This document shows positions 1 through 12,231 of a DNA stretch of 12,231 bases, in pieces; position 1 is the first letter of the stretch; the number at the start of each line of letters is the position of its first letter. Source of the stretch: a virus. Its lineage: Duplodnaviria > Heunggongvirae > Uroviricota > Caudoviricetes. The notes under the pieces are model-generated. The model was not told the origin of the DNA and ran no database searches. It was given only the letters and a program-made list of their open reading frames with translations. The stretch lies in IMG/VR virus record IMGVR_UViG_2645727901_000013. One strand, written 5' to 3'. The position numbers and the translations under genes are program-made.

Positions 1-615
1 ACCCTCGTTCGGTAACTGCCACTGACTGGTACCAAACCAGTGCGAAGCCATGTTTTTCTTTCCGGTGGCTTCCGCTATCTGTTTTGACGTTATTCCCAGT
101 GATTTACGCGCATCACGAAAGTAAGAAATCAGCGGGGCCATGACGTGCTGTTTTAGCTCGCGCCCCTGTGCCACATAGCCATCATCTTTCGGGCGATACG
201 GTCCCTGATAATGTTCTGCAAACAGAATGCGCTCTGTTGCCGGAAAATACGCCCGCAGACTTTCCTTATTGCACCCGTTCCAGCGTCCGGACGGCTTCGC
301 CCAGATAATGTGGTTCAGCACATTAAAGCGCTCACGCATCATGATTTCGGTGTCAGATGCCAGGCGATGACCACAGAACAGGTAAAGACTTCCGGCAGGC
401 TTCAGTACCCGCCAGAACTGCGCCAGACACTGGTCCAGCCATTTCAGGTAATCATCGTCGCCCTCCCACTGGTTATCCCAGCCCTCGGGCTTCACTTTAA
501 AGTATGGCGGGTCTGTGACTATCAGATCGACAGAGTTTTCCGGTAAGGTCTGGATAAATTCCAGGCAATCAGCGTTGATTAACTCACAACTGGATATTTT
601 TACAGTATTAATCAT
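1..615 (-). CDS. DNA N6-adenine methyltransferase (beta-class, DPPY motif), 5' portion only; 3' end lies beyond the window
   Basis: Manual minus-strand translation from ATG at 615-613 is open to position 1 (no stop in the frame with codons 1-3, 4-6 ...). It begins MINTVKISSCELINADCLEFIQTLPENSVDLIVTDPPYFKVKPEG; DPPY is catalytic motif IV of N6/N4 amino-methyltransferases. Absent from the supplied ORF track, presumably because it has no in-window stop. Family assignment is established knowledge; no search run. Confidence 0.8.
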   Translation of the reverse strand, partial: MINTVKISSCELINADCLEFIQTLPENSVDLIVTDPPYFKVKPEGWDNQWEGDDDYLKWLDQCLAQFWRVLKPAGSLYLFCGHRLASDTEIMMRERFNVLNHIIWAKPSGRWNGCNKESLRAYFPATERILFAEHYQGPYRPKDDGYVAQGRELKQHVMAPLISYFRDARKSLGITSKQIAEATGKKNMASHWFGTSQWQLPNEG

Positions 616-751
616 AGATCAATAAGCACTTCTCTGATAGGCTCATACCGCTTTTGCGCAAAGCAGATGGGCCTGAGGTTTGCTTGTGACCCCAACGCAT
701 GAGCAGATGGCTGGCAGGTGCCGCTAACACCCACCAGCCGCCCATTACCAC

Positions 752-779
752 AAATTAAAAAGCCTTCACTGCGGAAGGC
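752..779 (-). terminator. Putative rho-independent terminator (minus strand)
   Basis: Seen in sequence: plus-strand GCCTTC (762-767) / loop ACTGCG / GAAGGC (774-779); read on the minus strand the hairpin is followed by TTTTTAATTT (complement of 752-761). The stop codon of the 766-963 ORF lies inside the stem. Confidence 0.5.
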
Positions 780-963
780 GTCTGTAACAACCGAACTGAT
801 AATCTGCCAGACCCGCCATAACAAGCTGAGTCAGTATTAACTGGCAGCGTTCGCGTGAAAGGTAAGTATTCTGCGCAATTTCCCCGACGGTCGCCGGTTC
901 GGTGACGCTTAATTCATTAAACACCACTCTGGCGGTTTCGGTCATATCCTGCTGTTTTAGCAT
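766..963 (-). CDS. Hypothetical small protein (about 65 aa), possible helix-turn-helix fold
   Basis: Track ORF 766..1086 begins with GTG at 1086 immediately after a terminator U-run and has no RBS, so I prefer the internal ATG at 963-961 (MLKQQDMTETARV...), which has a GGGA-containing purine run upstream. Bracketed by terminators at 1087-1115 and 752-779. Function unknown; HTH guess is from residue pattern only. Confidence 0.35.
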   Translation of the reverse strand: MLKQQDMTETARVVFNELSVTEPATVGEIAQNTYLSRERCQLILTQLVMAGLADYQFGCYRRLPQ

Positions 964-1086
964 GCCTTTTTCCCTTTTCCGGTTAACGTGACATACCAAT
1001 ACCTCTTGTCGAAAAAGCCAGCAAGCTGAAAGACCAGCATTCACAACCACCAGCGCATTTAACGTCCTGTACCGCTTTTCAGACAC

Positions 1087-1115
1087 AAAAAAACCCGCAT
1101 AAAGCGGGTTCTTTC
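1087..1115 (-). terminator. Strong intrinsic terminator downstream of Q-like gene (tR'-like); possibly bidirectional
   Basis: Seen in sequence: plus strand A-run (1087-1093), stem AACCCGC (1092-1098), loop ATAAA, GCGGGTT (1104-1110), then TTCTTTC. On the minus strand the hairpin is followed by 7 T. Position after the Q-like gene matches lambda tR' (established knowledge of lambdoid late-region layout). Confidence 0.7.
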
Positions 1116-1194
1116 AGGTGTCCATGTCTGCTATTCGCCTCGCGGTATAGCTTTGCGAAGCGTAGCTGGATTGAAACAGTTTATGCGTAAAAAA

Positions 1195-1749
1195 TCAAGA
1201 CATTTTTTGAGCAAACGATTCTCGCATAGGGATGTATAGCGCATATTCAGCAACAGCCAACCAATTAGCAATTCGCTTTTCGCATGTACTAAAACACCAT
1301 TCCGGGTGCACCTCATTCAACAATTCAGCCATTTTGCGTTTACTCATCCCCCGCCCTTCGTACCTTTGCCGCAGGATATCAATCAATCCAGGATAACGTG
1401 CAAGCGCTTTACTTATCACCCCATCAATGCGTAACGCCTCTGCATCAGTACAGTGAGACAACCAGCTCTTCTGTCTGCCAGCGATCATCTCTCGCAAGAA
1501 TGCTTCCAGCTCTGGTTTATCAATCCCTGACTCCCTGATTCTACGCAGGGCTTCATTGATCGCGGTTTTTGTCAGTTTTTTGGATGTCAGCAACTGATTG
1601 AACATATTTCCTGGTTTGCCACCACCTATGTACGACCAACGCCCCCACATCCGTAATTTCCCCTGGATCCAGACGGCTTCCAGCGTTTTTAGACGTAAAT
1701 GCTCGCCGCTTTTGCCTGTAATTTCCGGGTATATCATATTTACGATCAC
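1195..1749 (-). CDS. Late-gene antitermination protein Q-like (QuuD/Phage_antitermQ-type)
   Basis: 184-aa ORF directly downstream of rusA, the usual lambdoid Q position. It carries a W-G-R-W motif (LRMWGRWSY) and a LLTSKKLT segment that, recalled from memory, resemble the LERWGAWA and GLITSK regions of E. coli QuuD. The 1749 start is GTG overlapping the rusA stop; an alternative ATG is at 1737. Followed by a terminator. Family call from memory only. Confidence 0.6.
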   Translation of the reverse strand: MIVNMIYPEITGKSGEHLRLKTLEAVWIQGKLRMWGRWSYIGGGKPGNMFNQLLTSKKLTKTAINEALRRIRESGIDKPELEAFLREMIAGRQKSWLSHCTDAEALRIDGVISKALARYPGLIDILRQRYEGRGMSKRKMAELLNEVHPEWCFSTCEKRIANWLAVAEYALYIPMRESFAQKMS

Positions 1750-2105
1750 TCACTCTCAATTTTGTAAATCTTCACGCCCAGCCGCCCCCCAGGAACGAGC
1801 TGACCGCGCACAATATTAATTTCATCAAACTGCTCGTCGTCTATGAGAAGTCCGGCATGCGTCAGCGCATCCAGTGGTGCTTTCAGGATATTGTCCAGGT
1901 CACGACGACGCTTATCCGGTGGCTCTGCAATAATCTTTATCGCCAGCCGTCCGGACAGGTTTAATTTCAGCCGCTGCTCGCGAACAATTAGCGCCACATC
2001 CCGGCGATAACGCTCACCGGCTTTTGATACAAAATATGTGTTGTCACGACGTCGCCAGTAGGTGTTCACCGTTGGCGGGTAAGGCAAAACAAACTCTATA
2101 CGCAT
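1746..2105 (-). CDS. rusA: Crossover junction endodeoxyribonuclease RusA (Holliday junction resolvase)
   Basis: 119-aa protein with LPYPPTVNTYWRR near the N-terminus and the acidic catalytic segment DKRRRDLDNILKAPLDALTHAGLLIDDEQ, recognisably parallel to E. coli RusA (RRRDLDN...DALT...DD). Sits between nin-region-like genes and Q as in lambdoid phages. Confidence 0.9.
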   Translation of the reverse strand: MRIEFVLPYPPTVNTYWRRRDNTYFVSKAGERYRRDVALIVREQRLKLNLSGRLAIKIIAEPPDKRRRDLDNILKAPLDALTHAGLLIDDEQFDEINIVRGQLVPGGRLGVKIYKIESE

Positions 2106-2117
2106 CAGTAACCTCTT

Positions 2118-3113
2118 TTACCCAAGCACGCCGGTTGCAAAGGCGTGATCAAGAAAATGAAAAATTAAATCAACCTGGGAACCATGCTTTTCTTCGAATG
2201 CCAGCGGATCCGCATGAAGCTCGTTGTGATGTTCCCGACACAGCGGTAGTGTGAAAATATCGTGGGATTTTGTTCCCATTCCACCCTGACCGTGGCCTAT
2301 CAGGTGGTGGGCATCATCAGCAGGCTTTCCGCAACATGCGCACGGCTGCGTCTTAACCCAGCGCGTGTACTTTTCATTAACCCAGCGGCGACGTTTTGGG
2401 CGTAACATAAAAGACTCCGGCGACTCCGGATCCACTTTCAGCGCCAGCACCTTTTTCGCCTTATCCTGGATGATGCTGGTGGCAGTAACCGAAGGCACAA
2501 GGTCACTTTCCCGGGTAACAGACGGCACAACAGGCTTCGGTAATCTCAGTGCCTTACGGGCTGCACTTTCCGATAAGGCATCCGCCAGATCATTACGAAT
2601 CAGCCACCAGCACAGTTCCGGCATTGTCACAACGTGACTGTCGTCAAAACCGAGCTCCCGACGCACAACAGACAACACCCAGCGGGCACAGTTATCCGTT
2701 GCCATTGATTCCAGCCGTTCCGTGAACTGATCGCGCAGCTGGTTATCGCAGTGCCAGCACAGACGGATTGCGCCCGGAGCGTGTCGCATTGTGGTCATGT
2801 TCTCGCTGTGCCAGTTGGAATGAGGCCACTGACAGCCCTTTTCACGAAGTAACCAGCTTTCAAGACATTCCACGCCACCAGCACGACGGATCACTGCCTC
2901 ATTGCGGAACACGGCCCGAACGGCAGGATCATCCGCCAGCGGTTGTGATGCCGCCGGAACGGCACCACTGGCAAAAGATGAATAACGTTCCGGCTCAGGC
3001 TCCAGCAGGACACGCCCCTGCATAAACAGGGGCATCAGCTCTGAACCGGGCCTGAACAATACGATCCCCATACGCGGGGCAATTTCAGGGGTCAGTAGTG
3101 CTCTCACGGTCAC
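2118..3113 (-). CDS. Prophage protein with C-terminal HNH-like zinc/His motif (DUF968/YdfU-like)
   Basis: 331-aa ORF. C-terminus contains CACCGKPADDAHHLIGHGQGG...LCREHHNELH, i.e. Cys pair plus His-His and H-x3-H in HNH-type arrangement. Genes of this kind sit just upstream of rusA/Q in E. coli cryptic prophages (established knowledge). Family name is from memory and unverified. Confidence 0.65.
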   Translation of the reverse strand: MTVRALLTPEIAPRMGIVLFRPGSELMPLFMQGRVLLEPEPERYSSFASGAVPAASQPLADDPAVRAVFRNEAVIRRAGGVECLESWLLREKGCQWPHSNWHSENMTTMRHAPGAIRLCWHCDNQLRDQFTERLESMATDNCARWVLSVVRRELGFDDSHVVTMPELCWWLIRNDLADALSESAARKALRLPKPVVPSVTRESDLVPSVTATSIIQDKAKKVLALKVDPESPESFMLRPKRRRWVNEKYTRWVKTQPCACCGKPADDAHHLIGHGQGGMGTKSHDIFTLPLCREHHNELHADPLAFEEKHGSQVDLIFHFLDHAFATGVLG

Positions 3114-3158
3114 CTCAGCGAACGGTATTGCATGAACGCAGAAGAAAAAATTCAGCCA

Positions 3159-3416
3159 TCACGCAGTAAACTCCTTCACCAGTATTTCAAACTGGCTTAC
3201 CTGGCCTTCCAGTTCCGCCACGCAATCCACCAGCTCATCCACCGCCTTTTGTGTGCGGTGTTTTGCCAGCAGCAGATCACGCAGCGCCGGAGTAAGCTGC
3301 TTGCGGAGCGTATCCTTTGCCACGCTCGTTTTTTCCATCTGTTCAGCACAACGAAGCATCTCCTGCGCCTGCCGACGAAGTTGTTCCGGTGAAACAGTGA
3401 TTGCTCTGTTGTTCAA
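3159..3416 (-). CDS. Hypothetical protein (85 aa), charged and probably helical
   Basis: Track ORF; start ATG overlaps the stop of the upstream helicase gene (coordinates 3413-3416), consistent with translational coupling in the operon. No recognisable motif. Confidence 0.55.
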   Translation of the reverse strand: MNNRAITVSPEQLRRQAQEMLRCAEQMEKTSVAKDTLRKQLTPALRDLLLAKHRTQKAVDELVDCVAELEGQVSQFEILVKEFTA

Positions 3417-4813
3417 AATAAACGCTCCGTTTTACTGCCCGACATGCGGTTATTGCTGTATCTGCGCGGATTGCCCGGCGTCATGGGTGTGGAAAGAACC
3501 CGGGCACTCTCCTGGTCCACAGGCAGAAAATGTCCGTTATGAAAACGCCGGTAAATGGTCCCGAGCGTGCCATTACGCTGTTTCGTGATGTTGATTTCTG
3601 CTATGCCTCTGGCCTGAGTTTCCGGGTTGTATACCTCATCCCTGTAAAGCATCAGAATGATGTCGGCATCCGCCTCGATTTCCCCGGAGTTTTTCAGGTC
3701 CGAGTTCATTGGGCGTTTATTGGGTCTGGATTCCACGCCGCGGGAGAGCTGGCTCAGAGCAATCAGCGGAAAACCGCCGGATTTTGCCAGGCTTTTAAGT
3801 CCCTTTGAGATTTCCCCCACAGCAAGGTCGTGACGCCCCGTGCTGCGGGTTTTAATCAGGCCGAGGTAATCGACCACAACCAGCGCCGTTTCCGGGTGTT
3901 TCATCCGGTGGTGCTTCGTGGTTGCACATATCTCATCAATGGTCAGGTTTGCCTGGTCCACCATCCAGATATTACGCCCCGTCATTCGTCCCACGCCCTG
4001 CGAGAAACGCGCCCAGTCTTCATCTTCAAAACGGGCAACAGACTTAAGACGGGATACCGGCATTCCACCGGCAGCAGACACCATACGTTCACCAATCTGG
4101 ATGTTCGCCATCTCCATGGTGAACAGAAGCACGCCATGCCCCTGCTCAGTCACCTTGTCGATGATGTCCAGCGCAAGTTCGGTTTTCCCCATCGAAGGAC
4201 GGGCGGCAATGAATACCAGGTCTCCGGGCTCCATACCGCCCGTTTTTGCGTCCAGTTCATCAATACCGGTCATCAGCGCCCTGGATTTCTCCAGTCCCTG
4301 ATTGCGGCATTCAACACGGTCGACCACTTCCGGAAGGACATCATCAATGTGAACCGGCTGAATGACGCCCTTTCCGGTCGACAGTGAGGCCATCATGTTC
4401 TGCGCATCCTTCAGGGCATCCTCGGCTGCTTCACAGGTATACGCATCACGTAAATTCTGTAATGCTTCAGTCAGTGTTTTTTCTGCATCGCGCAGTGCGG
4501 CATTGCGCCGCAACGCTGCGACATAGTGCTCCAGTGAAGACTTCACCCAGGTTTTGCGTCCGGTGTCGGTAATCACCGGGGCAAGTTCCGGCATCTCATT
4601 GCACAGCAGTACGGGGTCAATGACGCCGGATATGCGAGCCTGTCTGCAAATCCCCGCGTAAATATCCCGGTACTGACGCACAAAAAATACATCCGCCGGA
4701 AGTGTGGCCAGAATATCCATCACTTCCGGATCGGCCCCACGCAGAAAAAACGCACCGATGACAGCGCCTTCCAGGTCATCGTTACGCCATGCCGGGGTGT
4801 TCTGGCTGGTCAT
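3413..4813 (-). CDS. Replicative DNA helicase, DnaB-like (phage-encoded)
   Basis: 466-aa ORF with Walker A IAARPSMGKTELALD, Walker-B-like LVVVDYLGL and DnaB-family arrangement (N-terminal domain plus RecA-like C-terminal domain). Start overlaps the stop of the DnaC-like gene (4810-4813). Confidence 0.9.
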   Translation of the reverse strand: MTSQNTPAWRNDDLEGAVIGAFFLRGADPEVMDILATLPADVFFVRQYRDIYAGICRQARISGVIDPVLLCNEMPELAPVITDTGRKTWVKSSLEHYVAALRRNAALRDAEKTLTEALQNLRDAYTCEAAEDALKDAQNMMASLSTGKGVIQPVHIDDVLPEVVDRVECRNQGLEKSRALMTGIDELDAKTGGMEPGDLVFIAARPSMGKTELALDIIDKVTEQGHGVLLFTMEMANIQIGERMVSAAGGMPVSRLKSVARFEDEDWARFSQGVGRMTGRNIWMVDQANLTIDEICATTKHHRMKHPETALVVVDYLGLIKTRSTGRHDLAVGEISKGLKSLAKSGGFPLIALSQLSRGVESRPNKRPMNSDLKNSGEIEADADIILMLYRDEVYNPETQARGIAEINITKQRNGTLGTIYRRFHNGHFLPVDQESARVLSTPMTPGNPRRYSNNRMSGSKTERLF

Positions 4814-5718
4814 GCGGCAACACCTCCGATACGAGAACGGTAGCTGGGCCAGTTAAACGACAACCAGTTGCGCCCGCCATCGGTGATCCTGTCGGCAATC
4901 CGGGGACTGATGAACGCCCACAATTCTTCCGGTGAAAGGTTGCTGATCAGGATAGTTGGCAAAATACCCTCATACCGGGCATTGATAATTTCCTGCAAAA
5001 TGGCCATTTCAGCCGCACTGCCAAACTGAACGCCGACTTCGTCGACAATCAGCAAATCCAGTGACGCATAATGCTCAATGACGTCATCCGCTGTTTTTTC
5101 ACTGTCATTCCGCCAGCAGTTTTTCACAGCCCGGGTAAGGCGCATCACGTCGGTGATCTCCACACTGGCCAGATAGTTACGGATGATGTGTTTTGCCATT
5201 GATACCGCCAGATGATTTTTCCCGGTACCGCAACTGCCGGTCATAACAAGACTGGTACCGTTCTCCAGCATATCTGGCCAGTTCTCCGCATAGCGGCGAC
5301 AGGCCGCAAGATTTCTGGCTGCGTCAGGATTAACCTCCAGATAATTATCAAACTCGCAGTCCCGAAAACGCAGAGCAATTCCGGCGTTATCAGTCAGTTC
5401 TTCCGCCTTGAGGGACGACAGTTCCATGGTCAAATCACTGGCCTCAGCGATCAAGCAGTCAGGGCAGCATGAAATTTTTTCTCTGTCCTCGCCATTACGA
5501 TCGATCCACACCAGTATATGCGTACGATATTTACCGTGTTTTTCGCAATATCCGCGACCTTCACGCATCAGGCAGGAACGATAAGGCCATGGCTTTTCGC
5601 CCTTCTGAGCAAATGCAATCTCTGCCCGTAACTCATCCATTTCTGCCCGTAACTCATCCATTCGCGCCTGTAGTCTTGTTTGTTTCTCACGTTGGTCAAT
5701 CGTCATCATCGCTGTCAC
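4810..5718 (-). CDS. DnaC/IstB-like AAA+ helicase loader with N-terminal Cys-rich (zinc-ribbon-like) extension
   Basis: 302-aa ORF; Walker A MTGSCGTGKNHLA and Walker B LLIVDEVG typical of DnaC/IstB ATPases. N-terminal region has C..C....CC..C cysteines and an in-frame tandem MDELRAE repeat. Confidence 0.85.
   Translation of the reverse strand: MTAMMTIDQREKQTRLQARMDELRAEMDELRAEIAFAQKGEKPWPYRSCLMREGRGYCEKHGKYRTHILVWIDRNGEDREKISCCPDCLIAEASDLTMELSSLKAEELTDNAGIALRFRDCEFDNYLEVNPDAARNLAACRRYAENWPDMLENGTSLVMTGSCGTGKNHLAVSMAKHIIRNYLASVEITDVMRLTRAVKNCWRNDSEKTADDVIEHYASLDLLIVDEVGVQFGSAAEMAILQEIINARYEGILPTILISNLSPEELWAFISPRIADRITDGGRNWLSFNWPSYRSRIGGVAA
5621..5662. repeat. Perfect 21-bp tandem duplication (2 copies) inside the DnaC-like gene
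   Basis: Seen in sequence: TCTGCCCGTAACTCATCCATT at 5621-5641 and again at 5642-5662. In-frame, giving MDELRAE-MDELRAE in the encoded protein. Confidence 0.9.
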
Positions 5719-5719
5719 C

Positions 5720-6712
5720 TCAGAATGTCAATTTGTTACTGGATTTACCGAATTTGTCAGACATGGCTCCCAGGCCAGCCAGGACATCGACCTGTCGCTG
5801 TCGCCCACCTCCGTGAGCGGCTGGCTGTTGCCAGTAATCTTCGAAGTGACGATCGGGTCCAAAGAACGTCGCAGCCTGCTTCACGAACTGTGTGCCGATA
5901 TTTCCTGTAGCACGTACCCAGGCGGCATACCGCTTCACGCCATCAAGCATGGTCTCCGGTTTTATTCCCTCCCTGATACGGGCTTTCCAGGCTTTGAAGG
6001 CTGCTGACTTGGAATTGCCACCAGCACGTTTGGGATATTCCTGCCAGGCCTGTTCAAATTCCGGTGAATATTCCTGTCGGGCAGAACGCGCTGGCGCAGA
6101 CGCGTCAGCGGATGCATCAATAGTGTTTTTAGTCTCCGTTGTAATCTCTGTAGTAATCTCTGTATTTGTATCAACATTCGGCGTATCCCCTGTTCCGTTA
6201 TGACGTCGGGGGGTGTTCCGTTTTAACGTAATAGCTGTATCGCTGATTGCATTATTGCTGTTACTTTCTGGCGAAACAGAAGAAGGTGTGGTGATGGCCG
6301 CAATTGCCTGTGGGTTGATCCCGACAAACAAAATATTGCTGCATTTCACCCCATCGAGCATTTCCACCGTGCGTAAATCCAGAGTAATAAACCCTGCATC
6401 GCGCAGACGCTTCAGCGCATCTGCGGTTTCCCTTTTCCCGAAACCAAACTGCTCAGCAAACGCCTGGTAGCTTCTTTGCAGTTTGTCGCCCTGAAAACGC
6501 TTGCGATATCCCAGCAACGCTCCGGTGTGCTCATCCCTGACCTCTGTCGGGCGGTACCAGTAAACGATCTCTGAAAGCAGAGCGATAGCCGTCGCATCCG
6601 GACGCCCACTGGGTAGTCGAATATATTTCCACCAGTTCGCAGGTGTAACATTGCCGGAAATATTAATTTGACCAATAGCCATAACTTCCGGTGTGGGGGC
6701 GTAACGGCTCAT
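5720..6712 (-). CDS. Phage replication initiation / replisome organizer protein (O-like; N-terminal organizer domain plus conserved phage C-terminal domain)
   Basis: 330-aa ORF in the lambda O position, immediately upstream of the helicase-loader and helicase genes. Low-complexity central linker (…NTEITTEITTETKNTIDASADASA…). C-terminal segment EYSPEFEQAWQEYPKRAGG…AAFKAWKARI fits the conserved phage replication-protein C-terminus as I recall it. Domain names from memory. Confidence 0.75.
   Translation of the reverse strand: MSRYAPTPEVMAIGQINISGNVTPANWWKYIRLPSGRPDATAIALLSEIVYWYRPTEVRDEHTGALLGYRKRFQGDKLQRSYQAFAEQFGFGKRETADALKRLRDAGFITLDLRTVEMLDGVKCSNILFVGINPQAIAAITTPSSVSPESNSNNAISDTAITLKRNTPRRHNGTGDTPNVDTNTEITTEITTETKNTIDASADASAPARSARQEYSPEFEQAWQEYPKRAGGNSKSAAFKAWKARIREGIKPETMLDGVKRYAAWVRATGNIGTQFVKQAATFFGPDRHFEDYWQQPAAHGGGRQRQVDVLAGLGAMSDKFGKSSNKLTF
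6141..6164. repeat. Iteron-like direct repeat (2 x 12 bp GTAATCTCTGTA) in the linker of the O-like gene; candidate origin element
   Basis: Seen in sequence: GTAATCTCTGTA at 6141-6152 and 6153-6164, followed by TTTGTATC. Lambda-type origins lie inside the initiator gene as iterons (established knowledge); the assignment here is inference. Confidence 0.4.
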
Positions 6713-7008
6713 ACAACCTCCTTCCGCGGCATGAGAATTGTGTAGCCACGCGCAGGTTGTAGTCTGGCTTTTGCATCAATAGTAAGCGTTGCAATTTTTC
6801 GGATATGAAGATAACCAGCTCTTTCCAGTGCCAGGGTTTCCCTGAATATCGCTTGCTTAGAACAACAGCAGAAATCAGCAAGCACCCGATGATCAATAAC
6901 TCTCTCGCCTTCACCGTCTGAAGAACCCGACATCAAAACACGCAACATAATCAGGCGCTGAATCGGGTTATCGAAAGCACATCCGCACACAAACTGAAAA
7001 CAGTTCAC
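6709..7008 (-). CDS. Hypothetical protein (99 aa), possible winged-helix DNA-binding protein
   Basis: Track ORF; ATGA-type start/stop overlaps with both neighbours (7005-7008 and 6709-6712) place it in the coupled operon. Segment KQAIFRETLALERAGYLHIRK looks like a recognition helix/wing; weak. Confidence 0.5.
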   Translation of the reverse strand: MNCFQFVCGCAFDNPIQRLIMLRVLMSGSSDGEGERVIDHRVLADFCCCSKQAIFRETLALERAGYLHIRKIATLTIDAKARLQPARGYTILMPRKEVV

Positions 7009-7229
7009 GCCACACCTCCCAGACGCTTAAACATTTTTCCAGACAGAAATACCGCCAGAGGGTAACTGATGGTGTAGCTACGCCCCTGTAGTTCGCACAC
7101 GACTTTCTGGCTTTCAGCGTTGACTAGGCAAACCCGCAGAACGTGACCGTTGCTGGTGGCGAACCACTGCCCCACACGGGGGCAACGGTTGTATCGGTGA
7201 TACAGGGAATTAACGATGTGGCGGATCAT
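7005..7229 (-). CDS. Hypothetical protein (74 aa)
   Basis: Track ORF; start overlaps upstream stop (7226-7229), stop overlaps downstream start (7005-7008). No recognisable motif. Confidence 0.45.
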   Translation of the reverse strand: MIRHIVNSLYHRYNRCPRVGQWFATSNGHVLRVCLVNAESQKVVCELQGRSYTISYPLAVFLSGKMFKRLGGVA

Positions 7230-7420
7230 GGACGCACCTCCGCCGTAGTTACGTATTTAACCGGGCTACCTTTCATTGAGATGGTTTCACACATCTCTGC
7301 CGCTTTCAGTTCCGCTGTTTTTCTGGATTTATAGCGACGGTGCCAGACAGATACATCCGTGCGAACTGATACATCGTTTCTGTATTCCGTAGTGGAGATG
7401 ATGATTTCGTAACTAATCAT
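7226..7420 (-). CDS. Hypothetical protein (64 aa)
   Basis: Track ORF; start overlaps the stop of the Rha-like gene (7417-7420). No recognisable motif. Confidence 0.45.
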   Translation of the reverse strand: MISYEIIISTTEYRNDVSVRTDVSVWHRRYKSRKTAELKAAEMCETISMKGSPVKYVTTAEVRP

Positions 7421-8265
7421 GGGCGAACCTCCTTGTCAGAACCATTCAGCCTGGAATCAACAAGTGCAGCGCCAAAAACAGCATCACCAACACGGTCGTA
7501 CAGTTTGCTAGCCAGCGGAGATTCAACGGCCTTAAGCATTGGATAAAGCTGGCTTGTCCAGATTTGATGGATTTCACGCAAATGCAGGTATACGCCTCTG
7601 GCGTTTCGTGCGACAGCTGACATATCAACCGCGTCAGCACCAGATAAATTCTTCTCCATCTGGTTAAAGGCGTTGATGTATGCCTCTTTGAACCGGGCTG
7701 CACGTTTGCCAGTAAAGCCCATAGCAAGGAACGCGAAGCCATCGCGGGTGATTTGATAGCAAGGTAGTTTGCGGCCTGTGCAATCGGTGTAATCACTGGG
7801 CTGAAAATTCAGCTCAGTGAATTCAACAGAGCACTCAAGCGTCTGGATTTTTTGAATAACGTTTTTGTGCTGCTTGCAGAAATATTCGGCAACGGCCAAA
7901 GAAGAGGTAACAGCCTTCCCATGGATAACATCAATTTTAGAGTGAGTTTGGGTAGGGGTGGTTGCCATAGTGACATCCTCATGTGCGAATTTTGAAAACT
8001 CACCACATGGGACGCCAATCACAGAGGTGGTGAGACGTACAGGGTTGGCGTAACCGGTCGCACATGACCCCGGCGCATCTTTCGATGCCCCTGCACGCCC
8101 CACCATAATTTGGATGTGAGGAAACGTGCGCAAAAAAACCGCTGAAGCGCGGTTATGCGCATGTGCGAATTTCAGGACGCCAATCCCGGCACCCGCTTTA
8201 TAAGGTGCGGAGACAGTGTAACGTCCCGAAATTGCAGAATCAATATTTGGTCTTGAAATGATCAT
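7417..8265 (-). CDS. Phage regulatory protein, Rha family (N-terminal start uncertain: 8265 or internal ATG at 7963)
   Basis: Central region GKAVTSSLAVAEYFCKQHKNVIQKIQTL…YQITRDGFAFLAMGFTGKRAARFKEAYINAFNQME matches the Rha-domain pattern as I recall it. The ATG at 7963-7961 (MATTPTQ…) has a good GAGGAT Shine-Dalgarno 7 nt upstream, whereas ATG 8265 has none. However, the frame is open from 8265 and contains an in-frame internal repeat, so the long form cannot be excluded. Confidence 0.7.
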   Translation of the reverse strand: MIISRPNIDSAISGRYTVSAPYKAGAGIGVLKFAHAHNRASAVFLRTFPHIQIMVGRAGASKDAPGSCATGYANPVRLTTSVIGVPCGEFSKFAHEDVTMATTPTQTHSKIDVIHGKAVTSSLAVAEYFCKQHKNVIQKIQTLECSVEFTELNFQPSDYTDCTGRKLPCYQITRDGFAFLAMGFTGKRAARFKEAYINAFNQMEKNLSGADAVDMSAVARNARGVYLHLREIHQIWTSQLYPMLKAVESPLASKLYDRVGDAVFGAALVDSRLNGSDKEVRP

Positions 8266-8348
8266 ATAGCTGCTGATATCTTTAGAACTGTTCTTGGATG
8301 TTTCGGAGCCGTTTTATGCGAAACAGCTCCCCGTTATTGATGTTGAGT

Positions 8349-8374
8349 GAGCCGGGTTACTCCCGGCTTTTTTT
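8349..8374 (+). terminator. Intrinsic terminator oriented for the plus strand (antisense to the early operon); oop-like
   Basis: Seen in sequence: stem GCCGGG (8351-8356), loop TTACT, CCCGGC (8362-8367), then 7 T (8368-8374) on the plus strand. On the minus strand the hairpin is not followed by a U-tract. Lies between the two minus-strand Rha-like genes, the position of the lambda oop terminator. Confidence 0.6.
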
Positions 8375-9081
8375 CATCGCTGCCAACCAATAACCTGAAA
8401 TAACCCCATTTTCGGGTGATACCAGCGAGTCCCTCGCGGTTCTGCTTCCTCCATAACCCGATAAAAAGCAGCCATAAACGGTTCCACAGCAACAATTGCG
8501 CGACGTGACAACAATCCGTCCGGCGTCATGAACTCATGTGTGTCTGTAGGAATTTGATAGGCGTTCACCAGATTGCGGCATTTATCATCTGACAAACCGG
8601 TTTTTGCTTTCAGTTGGCGATATCCGGCATAGCCCTCACGAATAGTGCCCTTTTTAATTTGCTCGACTGTTTCAGCAACGTGGCTGACTTTTTCTTCCAC
8701 CTGAGTGATCCGTTTCTGTTGGCGAACGGCTTCAAGAGCCATCGCGGCAACCATTTCGATTTCGCTCATTGGCTTACGGATCTGTTCTTCCAGTTCGCGC
8801 CAGCGATCTACCAGGCGAGCTGTGAATTCAGGACAGAGCTGTGCGACGACAATGATGCTGTCGCGCTTACCTCGTTCACCTTCGAATACATACGCGCTAG
8901 AAAATCGGCGAGGCCCAAGTGATTGTTTATTCTCAATTTCCACAGTCTGTGGAAATTGGATGATTCCCTTTTTAGCCAGTGTTTCAATAGTTCTCTTAAC
9001 ACTATCTGGTCGGCTTCCCACCAGCTCTGCGATCTCAACGCTGGTCATGGATGCTTTGCCGTTAAAAATTGCGGTGTTCAT
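8374..9081 (-). CDS. Phage regulatory protein, divergent Rha-like (cII-position gene)
   Basis: 235-aa ORF whose start overlaps the cro-like stop (9078-9081). N-terminal TSVEIAELVGSRPDSVKRTIETL…YVFEGERGKRDSIIVVAQL follows the same residue pattern as the Rha domain in the next gene (SSLAVAEYF..HKNVIQKIQTL…ITRDGFAFLAMG). Assignment by pattern comparison only. Confidence 0.55.
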   Translation of the reverse strand: MNTAIFNGKASMTSVEIAELVGSRPDSVKRTIETLAKKGIIQFPQTVEIENKQSLGPRRFSSAYVFEGERGKRDSIIVVAQLCPEFTARLVDRWRELEEQIRKPMSEIEMVAAMALEAVRQQKRITQVEEKVSHVAETVEQIKKGTIREGYAGYRQLKAKTGLSDDKCRNLVNAYQIPTDTHEFMTPDGLLSRRAIVAVEPFMAAFYRVMEEAEPRGTRWYHPKMGLFQVIGWQR

Positions 9082-9368
9082 TGTTTATCTCCTGCGTGTA
9101 TTCCATCCGCTCTGTGTGGTGAACTTGGATTTAGGCTTTTGCGTAACAAGTTAGGAATTCCATCTTCAGGGTGAGGATAAAGATCTGGCCTTAAGCCATG
9201 AGGCGTAACCTTCCATGCAACTACTTCACATACTCGTAAAACGAAACGAGCAGGAATTGTGCTTTTTGAAAACCACTGATTCACCGCTTGCGGCGTCACA
9301 CCAAGATTTCGCGCTATGGCATTTTGCGCAATTAATGCACGAAGTTTGTCGTAATCATTTCCTTCCAT
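9078..9368 (-). CDS. Cro-like HTH regulator (Cro/YdaS-type), first gene of the early rightward operon
   Basis: Divergent from the CI-like gene across a 133-bp AT-rich region. Contains ARNLGVTPQAVNQWFS, a Cro/CI-type HTH signature comparable to lambda Cro LGVYQSAINKAI. No strong SD at the 9368 start, so the exact start is uncertain. Confidence 0.7.
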   Translation of the reverse strand: MEGNDYDKLRALIAQNAIARNLGVTPQAVNQWFSKSTIPARFVLRVCEVVAWKVTPHGLRPDLYPHPEDGIPNLLRKSLNPSSPHRADGIHAGDKQ

Positions 9369-9501
9369 AACAAAGCACCAATATTAACTTTATAAATCAA
9401 GAATACATCAAGTTTAAATTAACATGCAAGTTACAAAAGGATCGAATACACTAAAATCAAGTAAAGATTTATCCTTGTAAAGAAACCCACAGGATTTGGT
9501 C
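9369..9501. promoter_or_regulatory. Immunity switch region (OR-like) between divergent cro-like and cI-like genes, with repeated ATCAAG-containing motifs
   Basis: Seen in sequence: AAATCAAG at 9394-9401 and 9454-9461, ATCAAGTTTAAATT at 9407-9420, ATCAAGTAAAGATT at 9456-9469, GAATAC at 9401-9406 and 9443-9448. Individual promoters and operator boundaries could not be resolved by eye. Confidence 0.5.
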
Positions 9502-10191
9502 ATGAAGAACGTCAAAAACACGGAAAATCGAATAGCCGCGATGCTGAAAGCAAAAGGATGGACTCAGGCTCAACTGGCCCGCAAGTTAGGTGTGAGTGCG
9601 CAATCAGTGCAGTACTGGACAACAGGAAAAACATTTCCACGGAGTGATAAGCTCGCGCATTTATCAGAGATTAGCGGTTATCCACAATCCTGGTTCTTAG
9701 GTGAAGACTCCTCACCAACCTTTTCCTCGCAAGAGAAACACCAGACAAGAACAGATAGCGTCGTATTTAATGTCCTTGATGTTGAGTTTAGTTGCGGTGA
9801 TGGAACTCATGTCCGTGGTGACTTGATAGATGTAGTGCGCTCAATAGAACTTGATCCTGAATATGCCCGACGTCTTGTTGGAAATCGGGCATTCAAAAAT
9901 ATAGAAATAGGTAACGCCAGAGGAGACAGTATGGCTCCCACAATCTCACCTGGCGACCTTCTTTTTCTTGATAAGACAGTAACTTATTTTGATGGCGATG
10001 GTATTTATGCATTTTGTTTTGATGGAGAATGCTACGTGAAAAGGCTTCAAAAAATTGGAAGCAAAATCATGGTGTTATCTGATAACCCCAATTATCAACC
10101 ATGGAGCATCGAAAAAGAGGGGTTAGCTCTGCTTTATATCCAGTCTAAAGTGATCTCATCAGTACCATTCAACATAAACAGATTTGGTTAG
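9502..10191 (+). CDS. CI-like prophage repressor: N-terminal XRE-type HTH plus C-terminal S24 (LexA-like) autopeptidase domain
   Basis: HTH: KGWTQAQLARKLGVSAQSVQYWTTGKTFP. S24 catalytic Ser in GDSMAPT and Lys in YVKRL; candidate Cys-Gly cleavage site in EFSCGDG (as in UmuD). ATG at 9502 has AGGAT 6 nt upstream; the track start at 9496 is a TTG. Followed by a strong terminator. Confidence 0.9.
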   Translation: MKNVKNTENRIAAMLKAKGWTQAQLARKLGVSAQSVQYWTTGKTFPRSDKLAHLSEISGYPQSWFLGEDSSPTFSSQEKHQTRTDSVVFNVLDVEFSCGDGTHVRGDLIDVVRSIELDPEYARRLVGNRAFKNIEIGNARGDSMAPTISPGDLLFLDKTVTYFDGDGIYAFCFDGECYVKRLQKIGSKIMVLSDNPNYQPWSIEKEGLALLYIQSKVISSVPFNINRFG

Positions 10192-10202
10192 TCTTTGATT
10201 TT

Positions 10203-10225
10203 AACGGGCTTTGCCCGTTTTTTTT
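10203..10225 (+). terminator. Rho-independent terminator downstream of cI-like gene
   Basis: Seen in sequence: AACGGGC (10203-10209), loop TTT, GCCCGTT (10213-10219), T-run of 8 (10218-10225), 12 nt after the cI stop. Confidence 0.8.
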
Positions 10226-10255
10226 CTGCCTGAAATATACGATATCAATTTTTTC

Positions 10256-10284
10256 TTGACAGCCTGTTTCCCAAAACATAATAT
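10256..10284 (+). promoter_or_regulatory. Near-consensus sigma70 promoter driving the accessory cassette downstream of cI
   Basis: Seen in sequence: TTGACA (10256-10261), 17-bp spacer, TAATAT (10279-10284). An ATCAAGTTATAATT-like motif (reverse orientation, 10294-10307) just downstream resembles the OR motif at 9407-9420, so repressor control is possible (inference). Confidence 0.55.
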
Positions 10285-10337
10285 CGCACCATCAATTATA
10301 ACTTGATTTGATTCAATTTAAAATTGTTGGCGGATAT

Positions 10338-10886
10338 ATGAAGACACTAAAAGCAACTCCAGAAACAACTAATTTTATCAACTGCGGCTGTGTTACGCTT
10401 AAGGGCTTAGAACTTGATTCCTTTGCATTAAATATTGCAAATTTGCTAAGTGCTGTACGCACATTCCATCTTCTGGATTGTGCTCGCTCAAAGGAACTGG
10501 GCATTGAGGTAATGGAATTTATCCATGAATATGCTCTATCTGCTGCTTCTCCTGCACAACAAAAACAATCCTTCCCTGAAAGCTGGCTGGTTAACCTTCG
10601 CACCCAACGCGAAGCCTGCGGCTTAACAACCGCCGAACTCGCCAGGCTGCTCGATCTCGATGAAGAAATTATCATCCAGTGGGAGAGCGGAGAGTATGAA
10701 CCAACTATCAGTATGCTTATCCCACTGGCAAATATTCTTGGCTGCGATCCGATGTGCCTGTTAACTGGTGAGGTTACTCCTCCGGAGCAACCAAAAAGTG
10801 AGGAGCAGCAACACCATGACGCATCTCAACAAGTTTGCCCCTTATCTCGCGAAGCTCTTCTGCGGAAGAACCAATACCAATGGTGA
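10338..10886 (+). CDS. Two-domain protein: unknown N-terminal domain plus C-terminal XRE-family HTH
   Basis: C-terminal LRTQREACGLTTAELARLLDLDEEIIIQWESGEYEPTISMLIPLANILGCDPMCLLTGE is a textbook Cro/CI-type HTH_3 segment. I prefer ATG 10338 over the track's TTG at 10308. The last ~35 codons overlap two other ORFs, so the 3' end is uncertain. N-terminal ~95 aa unassigned. Confidence 0.6.
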   Translation: MKTLKATPETTNFINCGCVTLKGLELDSFALNIANLLSAVRTFHLLDCARSKELGIEVMEFIHEYALSAASPAQQKQSFPESWLVNLRTQREACGLTTAELARLLDLDEEIIIQWESGEYEPTISMLIPLANILGCDPMCLLTGEVTPPEQPKSEEQQHHDASQQVCPLSREALLRKNQYQW

Positions 10887-11014
10887 CATAATCGCCGCTT
10901 CGCCCTTCAAGGTACATGCGAACATTTTTATCAATCATTGCGGAAACAGTCTCAATATGAAAACACTTCTGAGACTCGCTATATAGCAGAACATATAAGT
11001 CAGCTGAGGAAGCC

Positions 11015-11380
11015 ATGAAAAAGTTCGAAAACATAACTGTTCTCCATGTTGATGACTTTGATTATACAAACCCGGAACTTCTCCCGGAGGTTGTAAAGGC
11101 AATGGATGTTGCCGATATAGTGATTAGAGAAAAGAGAATTGTCAAAAACAGGCTCGCATGCACTTCAGGAGCAATGACAGAAACAACCTCACAGCAAGAT
11201 AATTACGAAGGCATTTGTCTGGAGCCTGATTCATTTGCGGTAAATGTTTATCATTTATTGCATGCAACACAGGTATTACATATGTCCAGTAATCACGAAA
11301 CGAAAACACTCGGCAGCGAAATTCTGAGTTTTGCATGTGAGTATACAAAAGCTGCTGCCGAAAAAGAATTAGCGCAATAA
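11015..11380 (+). CDS. Hypothetical acidic protein (121 aa)
   Basis: ATG at 11015 preceded by GAGGAAG with about 4-nt spacing; frame open for 121 codons in an AT-rich region. No recognisable motif. Confidence 0.55.
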   Translation: MKKFENITVLHVDDFDYTNPELLPEVVKAMDVADIVIREKRIVKNRLACTSGAMTETTSQQDNYEGICLEPDSFAVNVYHLLHATQVLHMSSNHETKTLGSEILSFACEYTKAAAEKELAQ

Positions 11381-11458
11381 CAACAAATATGCCCTGAACG
11401 TTTATTGCGGTTTTATCGCCGGGGATTGTTACAACCTTAATCCACAGGAGGCTTTATT

Positions 11459-11572
11459 GTGACTTTTATAAAGAATATGGCATCACACAAGACCGCCTGC
11501 CTTATTGCACAATACGGTGAAAATTACATGCATATTGCCTGCTTATTTCTGCGTAAAGCATACGGGAGATAA
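11459..11572 (+). CDS. Candidate small ORF (37 aa, GTG start), not in the supplied track
   Basis: Seen in sequence: consensus AGGAGG (11446-11451), 7-nt spacer, GTG at 11459; translation (V/M)TFIKNMASHKTACLIAQYGENYMHIACLFLRKAYGR; TAA at 11570-11572, 2 nt before the next gene's ATG at 11575. Could be a small protein or leader peptide. Confidence 0.3.
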   Translation: MTFIKNMASHKTACLIAQYGENYMHIACLFLRKAYGR

Positions 11573-11574
11573 TA

Positions 11575-11763
11575 ATGCATCAGAAAACAGCAGAACACGA
11601 ACAAACCAGAATATTGCTGACCATCAAAAACGGGAAAGTAATATTCATTCTCCATGTTCATGACGATGAACTTGTAGGAACTCTTTCAACATTCCTGTTT
11701 ATTGCAGAAAAGGCAGGATATGACGTTATTGCACCAGCAGATGAAGATGAAGATGAGGAATAA
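11575..11763 (+). CDS. Hypothetical small protein (62 aa) with polyacidic C-terminal tail (ADEDEDEE)
   Basis: ATG at 11575 with GGGAGA 5 nt upstream; stop 5 nt before the next gene's ATG. No recognisable family. Confidence 0.5.
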   Translation: MHQKTAEHEQTRILLTIKNGKVIFILHVHDDELVGTLSTFLFIAEKAGYDVIAPADEDEDEE

Positions 11764-11768
11764 ATATC

Positions 11769-12143
11769 ATGCAATACGATGAATTCCAGGCTGAAGCAAC
11801 AGCCAATGGTATACGAACTGGCAGTATGACGATTGATTATCACGACGCCATACGTCGTCTGGATGCCGGAGAATTCGATACTCCTAATGTGCGAGGTTTA
11901 CGTATCCTTCAGTGTCTGGCGCAAGCCGACGAAGCAGGATTACTGGGTAAACTTCCGGTTGAGATGAAGGTTGCTCAGTGGCGATGGTTGTATGTGACGA
12001 CATTCATCAACGAAGAAGAAGACAAGAACGGCACAATTGATATCCTGAATGAACACGGAACAACTGAACACGCCGTGGTATATAACGGGATGTATGGGTT
12101 TATGACGATATATCCCGGCCCCATTCGATTTGCCTTACGGTGA
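11769..12143 (+). CDS. Hypothetical protein (124 codons as read); 3' end interrupted by the IS1 insertion, so likely truncated
   Basis: ATG at 11769 with GAGGAA upstream. The final codon CGG (12138-12140) and the TGA stop (12141-12143) are built from the first bases of the IS1 terminus (GGTGATG…), so the native C-terminus is unknown. Confidence 0.5.
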   Translation: MQYDEFQAEATANGIRTGSMTIDYHDAIRRLDAGEFDTPNVRGLRILQCLAQADEAGLLGKLPVEMKVAQWRWLYVTTFINEEEDKNGTIDILNEHGTTEHAVVYNGMYGFMTIYPGPIRFALR

Positions 12144-12231
12144 TGCTGCCAACTTACTGATTTAGTGTATGATGGTGTTTTTGAGGTGCTCCAGTGGCTT
12201 CTGTTTCTATCAGCTGTCCCTCCTGTTCAGC
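12139..12231 (+). mobile_element. IS1 insertion sequence, left (insA-proximal) terminus; element continues beyond the window
   Basis: 12139-12231 reads GGTGATGCTGCCAACTTACTGATTTAGTGTATGATGGTGTTTTTGAGGTGCTCCAGTGGCTTCTGTTTCTATCAGCTGTCCCTCCTGTTCAGC, which matches the IS1 left end (terminal inverted repeat GGTGATGCTGCCAACTTACTGAT and start of insA) as I recall it. Recognition from memory; no alignment run. Confidence 0.85.
12194..12231 (+). CDS. insA: IS1 InsA, N-terminal fragment (continues beyond the window)
   Basis: GTG at 12194 followed by GCT TCT GTT TCT ATC AGC TGT CCC TCC TGT TCA = (M)ASVSISCPSCS, the known InsA N-terminus with its CxxC zinc-finger start. Confidence 0.8.
   Translation, partial: MASVSISCPSCS

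Follow-up and report, generated by a model that had tools for sequence, protein, structure and literature searches.

An IS1 left end abuts a truncated phrog_1515-family gene at the edge of a Stx-phage-like prophage contig

The insertion sequence IS1 measures 768 bp, has terminal repeats of ~30 bp and the genes insA and insB, and produces target duplications of 8 or 9 bp (PMC12428005). The stretch of DNA analysed here (the window) is 12,231 bp long, is identical to the complete contig JHTE01000084.1 of the short-read draft assembly GCA_001266335.1, and covers the immunity and replication region of a lambdoid, Stx-phage-like prophage. Its closest described relatives are the mlrA/yehV-integrated prophage of strain O55:H7 RM12579 (NC_017656.1, ~2.677-2.695 Mb) and phage PhiR49_2, which are collinear with window positions 1-12138 at 99.8-100% identity. 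Their gene order is also that of the window, with DnaB, a DnaC-like and an O-like protein, two Rha proteins and a cro-like protein on one side, and cI, an HTH protein and proteins of 121, 62 and 193 amino acids on the other. Compared with RM12579, only 3 of 7139 positions differ before the junction described below, and the first 5 kb are collinear too. Unlike the window, both relatives carry an uninterrupted gene for the 193-aa protein, with no IS1 at this site.

The terminal 93 bases of the window, which open with GGTGATGCTGCCAACTTACTGATTTAG..., are identical to the left end of IS1 from the first base of the element onward; position 12139 corresponds to IS1 base 1, the G of GGTGATGCTGCC. An alignment that included flanking DNA showed the same left end for the IS1A copy of E. 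coli K-12 MG1655 (annotated mobile element, 19796-20563). At least 5000 plasmid records hold an IS1 that is 100% identical over all 93 bases (E = 4e-41), including R100 (IS1B) and K. pneumoniae plasmids (IS1A). The recognizable parts are the following.

12139-12231, plus strand: first 93 bp of IS1, comprising the left inverted repeat, the insA leader and 12 insA codons (93/93 identity to IS1A and IS1B)
12139-12168, plus strand: left inverted repeat (IRL) of IS1, ~30 bp, starting with GGTGATGCTGCC (aligned to the annotated end of K-12 IS1A)
12194-12231, plus strand: 5' end of insA, GTG and 12 codons (VASVSISCPSCS), equal to the start of K-12 InsA1 at the same offset

The terminal inverted repeat, GGTGATGCTGCCAACTTACTGAT..., lies at the element boundary, as in IS1A and IS1B, and the insA frame opens ~56 bp from the left end, of which 12 codons are present before the contig ends. 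Its GTG start is base 56 of the element both in the window and in K-12 insA1. Inverted repeat, insA offset and first insA codons thus agree with IS1A of K-12 and with the IS1B-family copies of R100 and other plasmids; the visible part amounts to 12% of the 768-bp element, and these 93 bases fit IS1A and IS1B alike. A promoter-like site at 12146-12173 agrees with the known insA promoter in the IRL. The initial annotation had read the end of the window as the left terminus of IS1 with the start of insA, and the perfect match of the terminal bases together with the GTG at 12194 bears this out.

The gene that meets the element is the following.

11769-12143, plus strand: gene cut short to 124 aa, sharing residues 1-123 with a 193-aa phage early protein (phrog_1515)

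When aligned with the uninterrupted gene, identity runs through 12138 and stops there; beyond this position the uninterrupted gene reads on into AACAGTATATTG. The last sense codon of the truncated frame, CGG (12138-12140), has two of its three bases, both G's, from IS1, and the stop codon TGA (12141-12143) consists of IS1 bases 3-5. Residue 124 is R in the product encoded by the window and Q in the intact protein, which has 69 residues more. The earlier proposal that this frame takes its last codon and stop from IS1 is therefore correct to the base, in part for CGG and wholly for TGA. The window carries a genuine IS1 end abutting a gene at a point where the intact relatives read on, and the 124-aa ORF should be annotated as a pseudogene disrupted by IS1.

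Comparison with related loci confirms where the native gene ends. A megablast search with positions 11000-12231 found matches to 11000-12138 in 178 of 5,426 complete E. coli genomes, and the match ends at 12138 in every genome among the matches listed; similarity to PhiR49_2 and to many Stx1a/Stx2a phages likewise ends at this position. The intact gene measures 582 nt (193 aa) in RM12579 (WP_001199104.1) and PhiR49_2 (XSB43066.1), and both products are annotated as 'hypothetical protein'. Among 80 related IMG/VR loci the ORF has 193 aa in 56, 190 aa in 22, 192 aa in one and 279 aa in one; none of the 80 has a stop at codon 124, and IS1 is absent from all of them. As none of these viral loci and neither RM12579 nor PhiR49_2 has a gene ending at codon 124, the claim that the native 3' end is truncated is upheld. 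The further claim that this native end and everything downstream were displaced stands for the cut at IS1 and goes too far on the fate of the downstream DNA, which may have been lost or just shifted by about 0.78 kb, as the contig stops inside the element.

The interrupted allele is rare. None of the 5,426 complete E. coli genomes covered at least 80% of a junction query spanning 12060-12231, and the exact 124-aa product was found on only two contigs (NCBI and Logan sources), of which the second belongs to the 5-10 kb class. Because no complete genome has the junction and the product occurs on two contigs, the insertion allele is private to this strain or clone. The exact left junction had zero hits in genome_contigs, viral_contigs and metagenome_contigs, and the source assembly is absent from all three; a search for related loci in genome_contigs returned no relatives, and a literature search for the assembly accession gave no paper.

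The reading that we favour, at a probability of about 0.88, is transposition of the 768-bp IS1 into codon 124 of a 193-codon prophage gene, which truncated the product to 124 aa. In this mechanism the InsAB' transposase would have placed the element in a gene of the early arm (cI to int), with an 8-9 bp duplication; the host prophage is the lambdoid, Stx-phage-like one that is 99.8-100% identical to the RM12579 prophage adjoining mlrA. The left end of IS1 points toward the gene, with insA in the same direction as the gene, and the first five bases of the element complete CGG and add an in-frame TGA, giving the 124-aa product. The duplication, the remainder of the gene and the rest of the prophage would then lie beyond IS1 on another contig. 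IS1 insertions are classically polar. As insA is co-oriented with the early operon, one may speculate that IS1 polarity reduces transcription of the downstream early genes up to xis and int, and expression of xis might fall with it.

A simple insertion also makes a prediction for the right end, starting from the following site.

12130-12138, plus strand: predicted IS1 target TTGCCTTAC, deduced from the 8-9 bp duplication of IS1 (PMC12428005)

If the insertion was simple, a second copy of TTGCCTTAC should follow the right end of IS1, and the predicted right junction would consist of the IS1 end (...GGAGTCATTACC or ...AAGTTGGAGTCATTACC), the duplicate (T)TGCCTTAC and the rest of the gene, AACAGTATATTGAATGG. 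With a 9-bp duplication the insert would amount to 777 bp and the frame would be kept, yet stop codons internal to IS1 would block read-through. In the intact gene, the 30 bp that directly follow the target are AT-rich, which agrees with the known preference of IS1. An exact-pattern scan of viral_contigs for the predicted junction (right end of IS1, duplicate and rest of the gene) gave zero hits. The predicted 53-aa C-terminal remnant sequence occurs on 25 contigs, and the predicted 77-aa and 43-aa remnants were absent from the protein collection searched. Separately, a group of contig-edge partial proteins from other draft assemblies (P0153-P0160) starts near the IS1 site, at residues ~118-129 (PIRFALQQ..., IRFALQQ..., FALQQ..., YIEW...). 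Such starts are not what the predicted IS1 duplication would give, and a mosaic or recombination boundary at this place seems likelier, since protein P0005 looks recombinant.

The alternative that survives best, which we nevertheless consider unlikely, is that IS1 marks a rearrangement, i.e. an adjacent deletion or inversion that took place after insertion or through recombination with another IS1 copy. The 3' end of the gene, and perhaps the whole left arm through xis/int, would in that case have been deleted or relocated, leaving a grounded remnant. The introduction of PMC12428005 describes IS1 as a cause of deletions and rearrangements, and such a history would agree with a contig that ends inside IS1, with the multi-copy state of the element in most E. 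coli genomes and with the absence of a right junction carrying the expected duplication from the collections scanned. However, the failed scans are weak evidence, as the source assembly lies outside these collections and its left junction is missing there as well, and the left boundary coincides exactly with the IS1 terminus, just as a primary insertion would leave it. Simple IS1 insertions are also a commoner outcome than rearrangements. A simple insertion is most likely, ahead of an event in which IS1 deleted or rearranged the left prophage arm.

Far less probable is an assembly chimera, where a false join put an IS1 end onto the prophage contig and the strain itself has an uninterrupted gene. 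The contig does come from a draft short-read assembly, with the junction 93 bp from its end, and the exact 124-aa product is known from only 2 contigs. Against this, the join falls to the base on IS1 nucleotide 1, for which the chance would be ~1 in 768 per orientation if joining were random, and the same truncated product is encoded on a second contig; because the boundary coincides with the exact IS1 terminus, transposition is favoured over a random mis-join. That the ORF naturally ends near codon 124, with IS1 merely downstream, can be dismissed, as intact homologues run 70 conserved residues further and 0 of 80 related loci stop at codon 124.

The lost part of the protein can be described from its family. 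The intact protein matches phrog_1515, a family of unassigned function, over residues 1-192 of 193 (E = 3e-90), and homologues include L06 of phage phiP27. A full-length member of phrog_1515 is expected to have about 190-210 aa, whereas the window allele encodes only residues 1-123 and represents a truncated member. A profile search of 1.84 billion representatives yielded 101 relatives, of which the full-length ones (190-213 aa) match end to end. In an alignment of 20 full-length members, the C-terminal third, from residue 124 onward, holds 26 of the 72 invariant columns. The confident AlphaFold2 model based on this 20-member alignment (mean pLDDT 85.1, pTM 0.83) has its best-predicted blocks in residues 121-180 (pLDDT 91-97); measured against it, the window allele lacks most of helix 116-135 together with helix 137-150, a beta hairpin and helix 164-183. 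Because the lost part is conserved and confidently modelled, and full-length relatives match end to end, loss of function is very likely; the 124-aa product, lacking the conserved C-terminal 70 residues, is very probably non-functional.

The family consists of about 100 clusters of early proteins from phages and satellites, with a confidently predicted fold that is like nothing solved. The 193-aa protein gave no match in Pfam, NCBIfam, PADLOC or PDB, its model had no fold match, and no member of the phrog_1515 / phiP27 L06 family with an assigned function or a solved structure was found. PhiP27 and Stx1a/Stx2a phages carry the same pair of genes, for 62-aa and ~193-aa proteins, between repressor and int, and the intact 193-aa protein is commonly encoded by lambdoid and Stx prophages of E. 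coli, in the early operon. Proteins of 84 aa annotated as 'MarR family transcriptional regulator', which fall into one 90% cluster with the 193-aa protein, were considered as relatives and rejected, being unrelated in sequence. In Stx1a phages the 84-aa gene comes next downstream (locus L005, 4980-5234), and fused ORFs such as P0039 probably brought the two into one cluster, as a linkage artefact.

The event is an ordinary case, known in kind, of IS1 inactivating a prophage gene for a hypothetical protein, and its significance lies mostly in annotation: the contig end is to be read as a repeat-induced assembly break. The strain further supplies a natural truncation allele for study of the phrog_1515 / phiP27 L06 family. 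If that family has a real role, for example in host takeover, anti-defence or excision control, the strain would be a natural knockout, and polarity of the co-oriented IS1 might help to lock the prophage in place; we regard this broader significance as doubtful.

Among the 5,426 complete E. coli genomes, 4,980 contain the IS1 end, with a median of 10 sites in each. Short-read assemblers cannot bridge such a multi-copy element, which explains why the contig breaks off after 93 bp of IS1. At its left end (window position 1) the contig also cuts through a gene, encoding a DNA methyltransferase, in a late-regulatory region common to many lambdoid prophages; the counterpart in RM12579 is NC_017656.1 2676549-2677598 (L095, 4050-5099). 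Both ends of the window are assembly breaks and not biological boundaries.

On the plus strand, cI is followed by genes for a 182-aa HTH protein, a 121-aa protein and a 62-aa protein and then by the disrupted gene; the minus strand carries a cro-like gene (YdaS family), two Rha-family genes, small ORFs and genes for an O-like protein, a DnaC/IstB-like protein, DnaB, DUF968 and RusA. Two of the plus-strand genes deserve their own lines.

9502-10191, plus strand: cI-type repressor (HTH_3 and Peptidase_S24), heading the rightward early arm that includes the disrupted gene
11575-11763, plus strand: intact 62-aa gene (phrog_340, homologue of phiP27 L07), ending 5 nt before the ATG of the truncated gene

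The initial annotation regarded the truncated ORF as the last gene of an accessory cassette, which the RM12579 prophage contradicts: ~12 further co-directional genes precede its mlrA junction, and those after the position of the disrupted gene include DUF4752, three ea22-like genes, DUF4222, xis and int. The impression of a last gene is an assembly artefact, since the contig ends there. The suggestion that a system is encoded at this place found no support either, as no match appeared in PADLOC and the neighbours are not conserved in distant relatives. PADLOC-DB gave no match for the 193-aa, 62-aa and 121-aa proteins and only generic HTH matches for the HTH protein and cI, and neither the 62-aa nor the 121-aa protein had a match in Pfam or NCBIfam.

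A two-gene, toxin-antitoxin-like module of the 62-aa and 193-aa proteins was also considered. The 62-aa gene lies immediately upstream in all 80 related viral loci. The distant relatives, however, have no conserved small partner: their upstream neighbours (a 74-aa ParE_like protein, proteins of 59 and 74 aa and a 277-aa ORF6N protein) resemble neither the 62-aa protein nor one another in sequence, and the module was rejected. These distant family members reside in early-gene arrays of other prophages and P4-like elements, together with AlpA, AntA, DUF4222 and primase genes. The gene content thus points to no defined multi-gene system, and the disrupted gene is one of many small early genes. 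In one distant relative (P0050) the 74-aa ParE_like gene (PF24732) is located just upstream with a 4-nt overlap (L087, 708-932); the other relatives do not have it.

Some minor features of the region were also recorded. Two tandem Rha-family regulator genes lie downstream of the gene in the cro position, for which Pfam gives YdaS_toxin (7417-8265, 8374-9081 and 9078-9368, all minus strand). A terminator-like hairpin (10203-10219) directly follows cI, and a promoter-like sequence (TTGACA-17-TAATAT, 10256-10284) lies in front of the HTH gene. On the plus strand, the genes beyond cI may form a transcription unit of their own; counts of terminator-like and promoter-like sites are no higher than in shuffled sequence. 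Residues 24-72 of the 182-aa HTH protein (10338-10886) and residues 69-116 of the 121-aa protein (11015-11380) match the same PHROG profiles (phrog_5451, phrog_4587 and phrog_4836), which suggests a ~48-aa module common to these adjacent genes. Finally, outside the window, the RM12579 prophage has a tRNA-Ile/Arg/Arg cluster followed directly by a SASA esterase gene (NC_017656.1, 2673910-2676499), at the position where Stx phages carry stx. Because the esterase gene follows the tRNA cluster directly, the RM12579 prophage is an stx-negative relative of the Stx phages.
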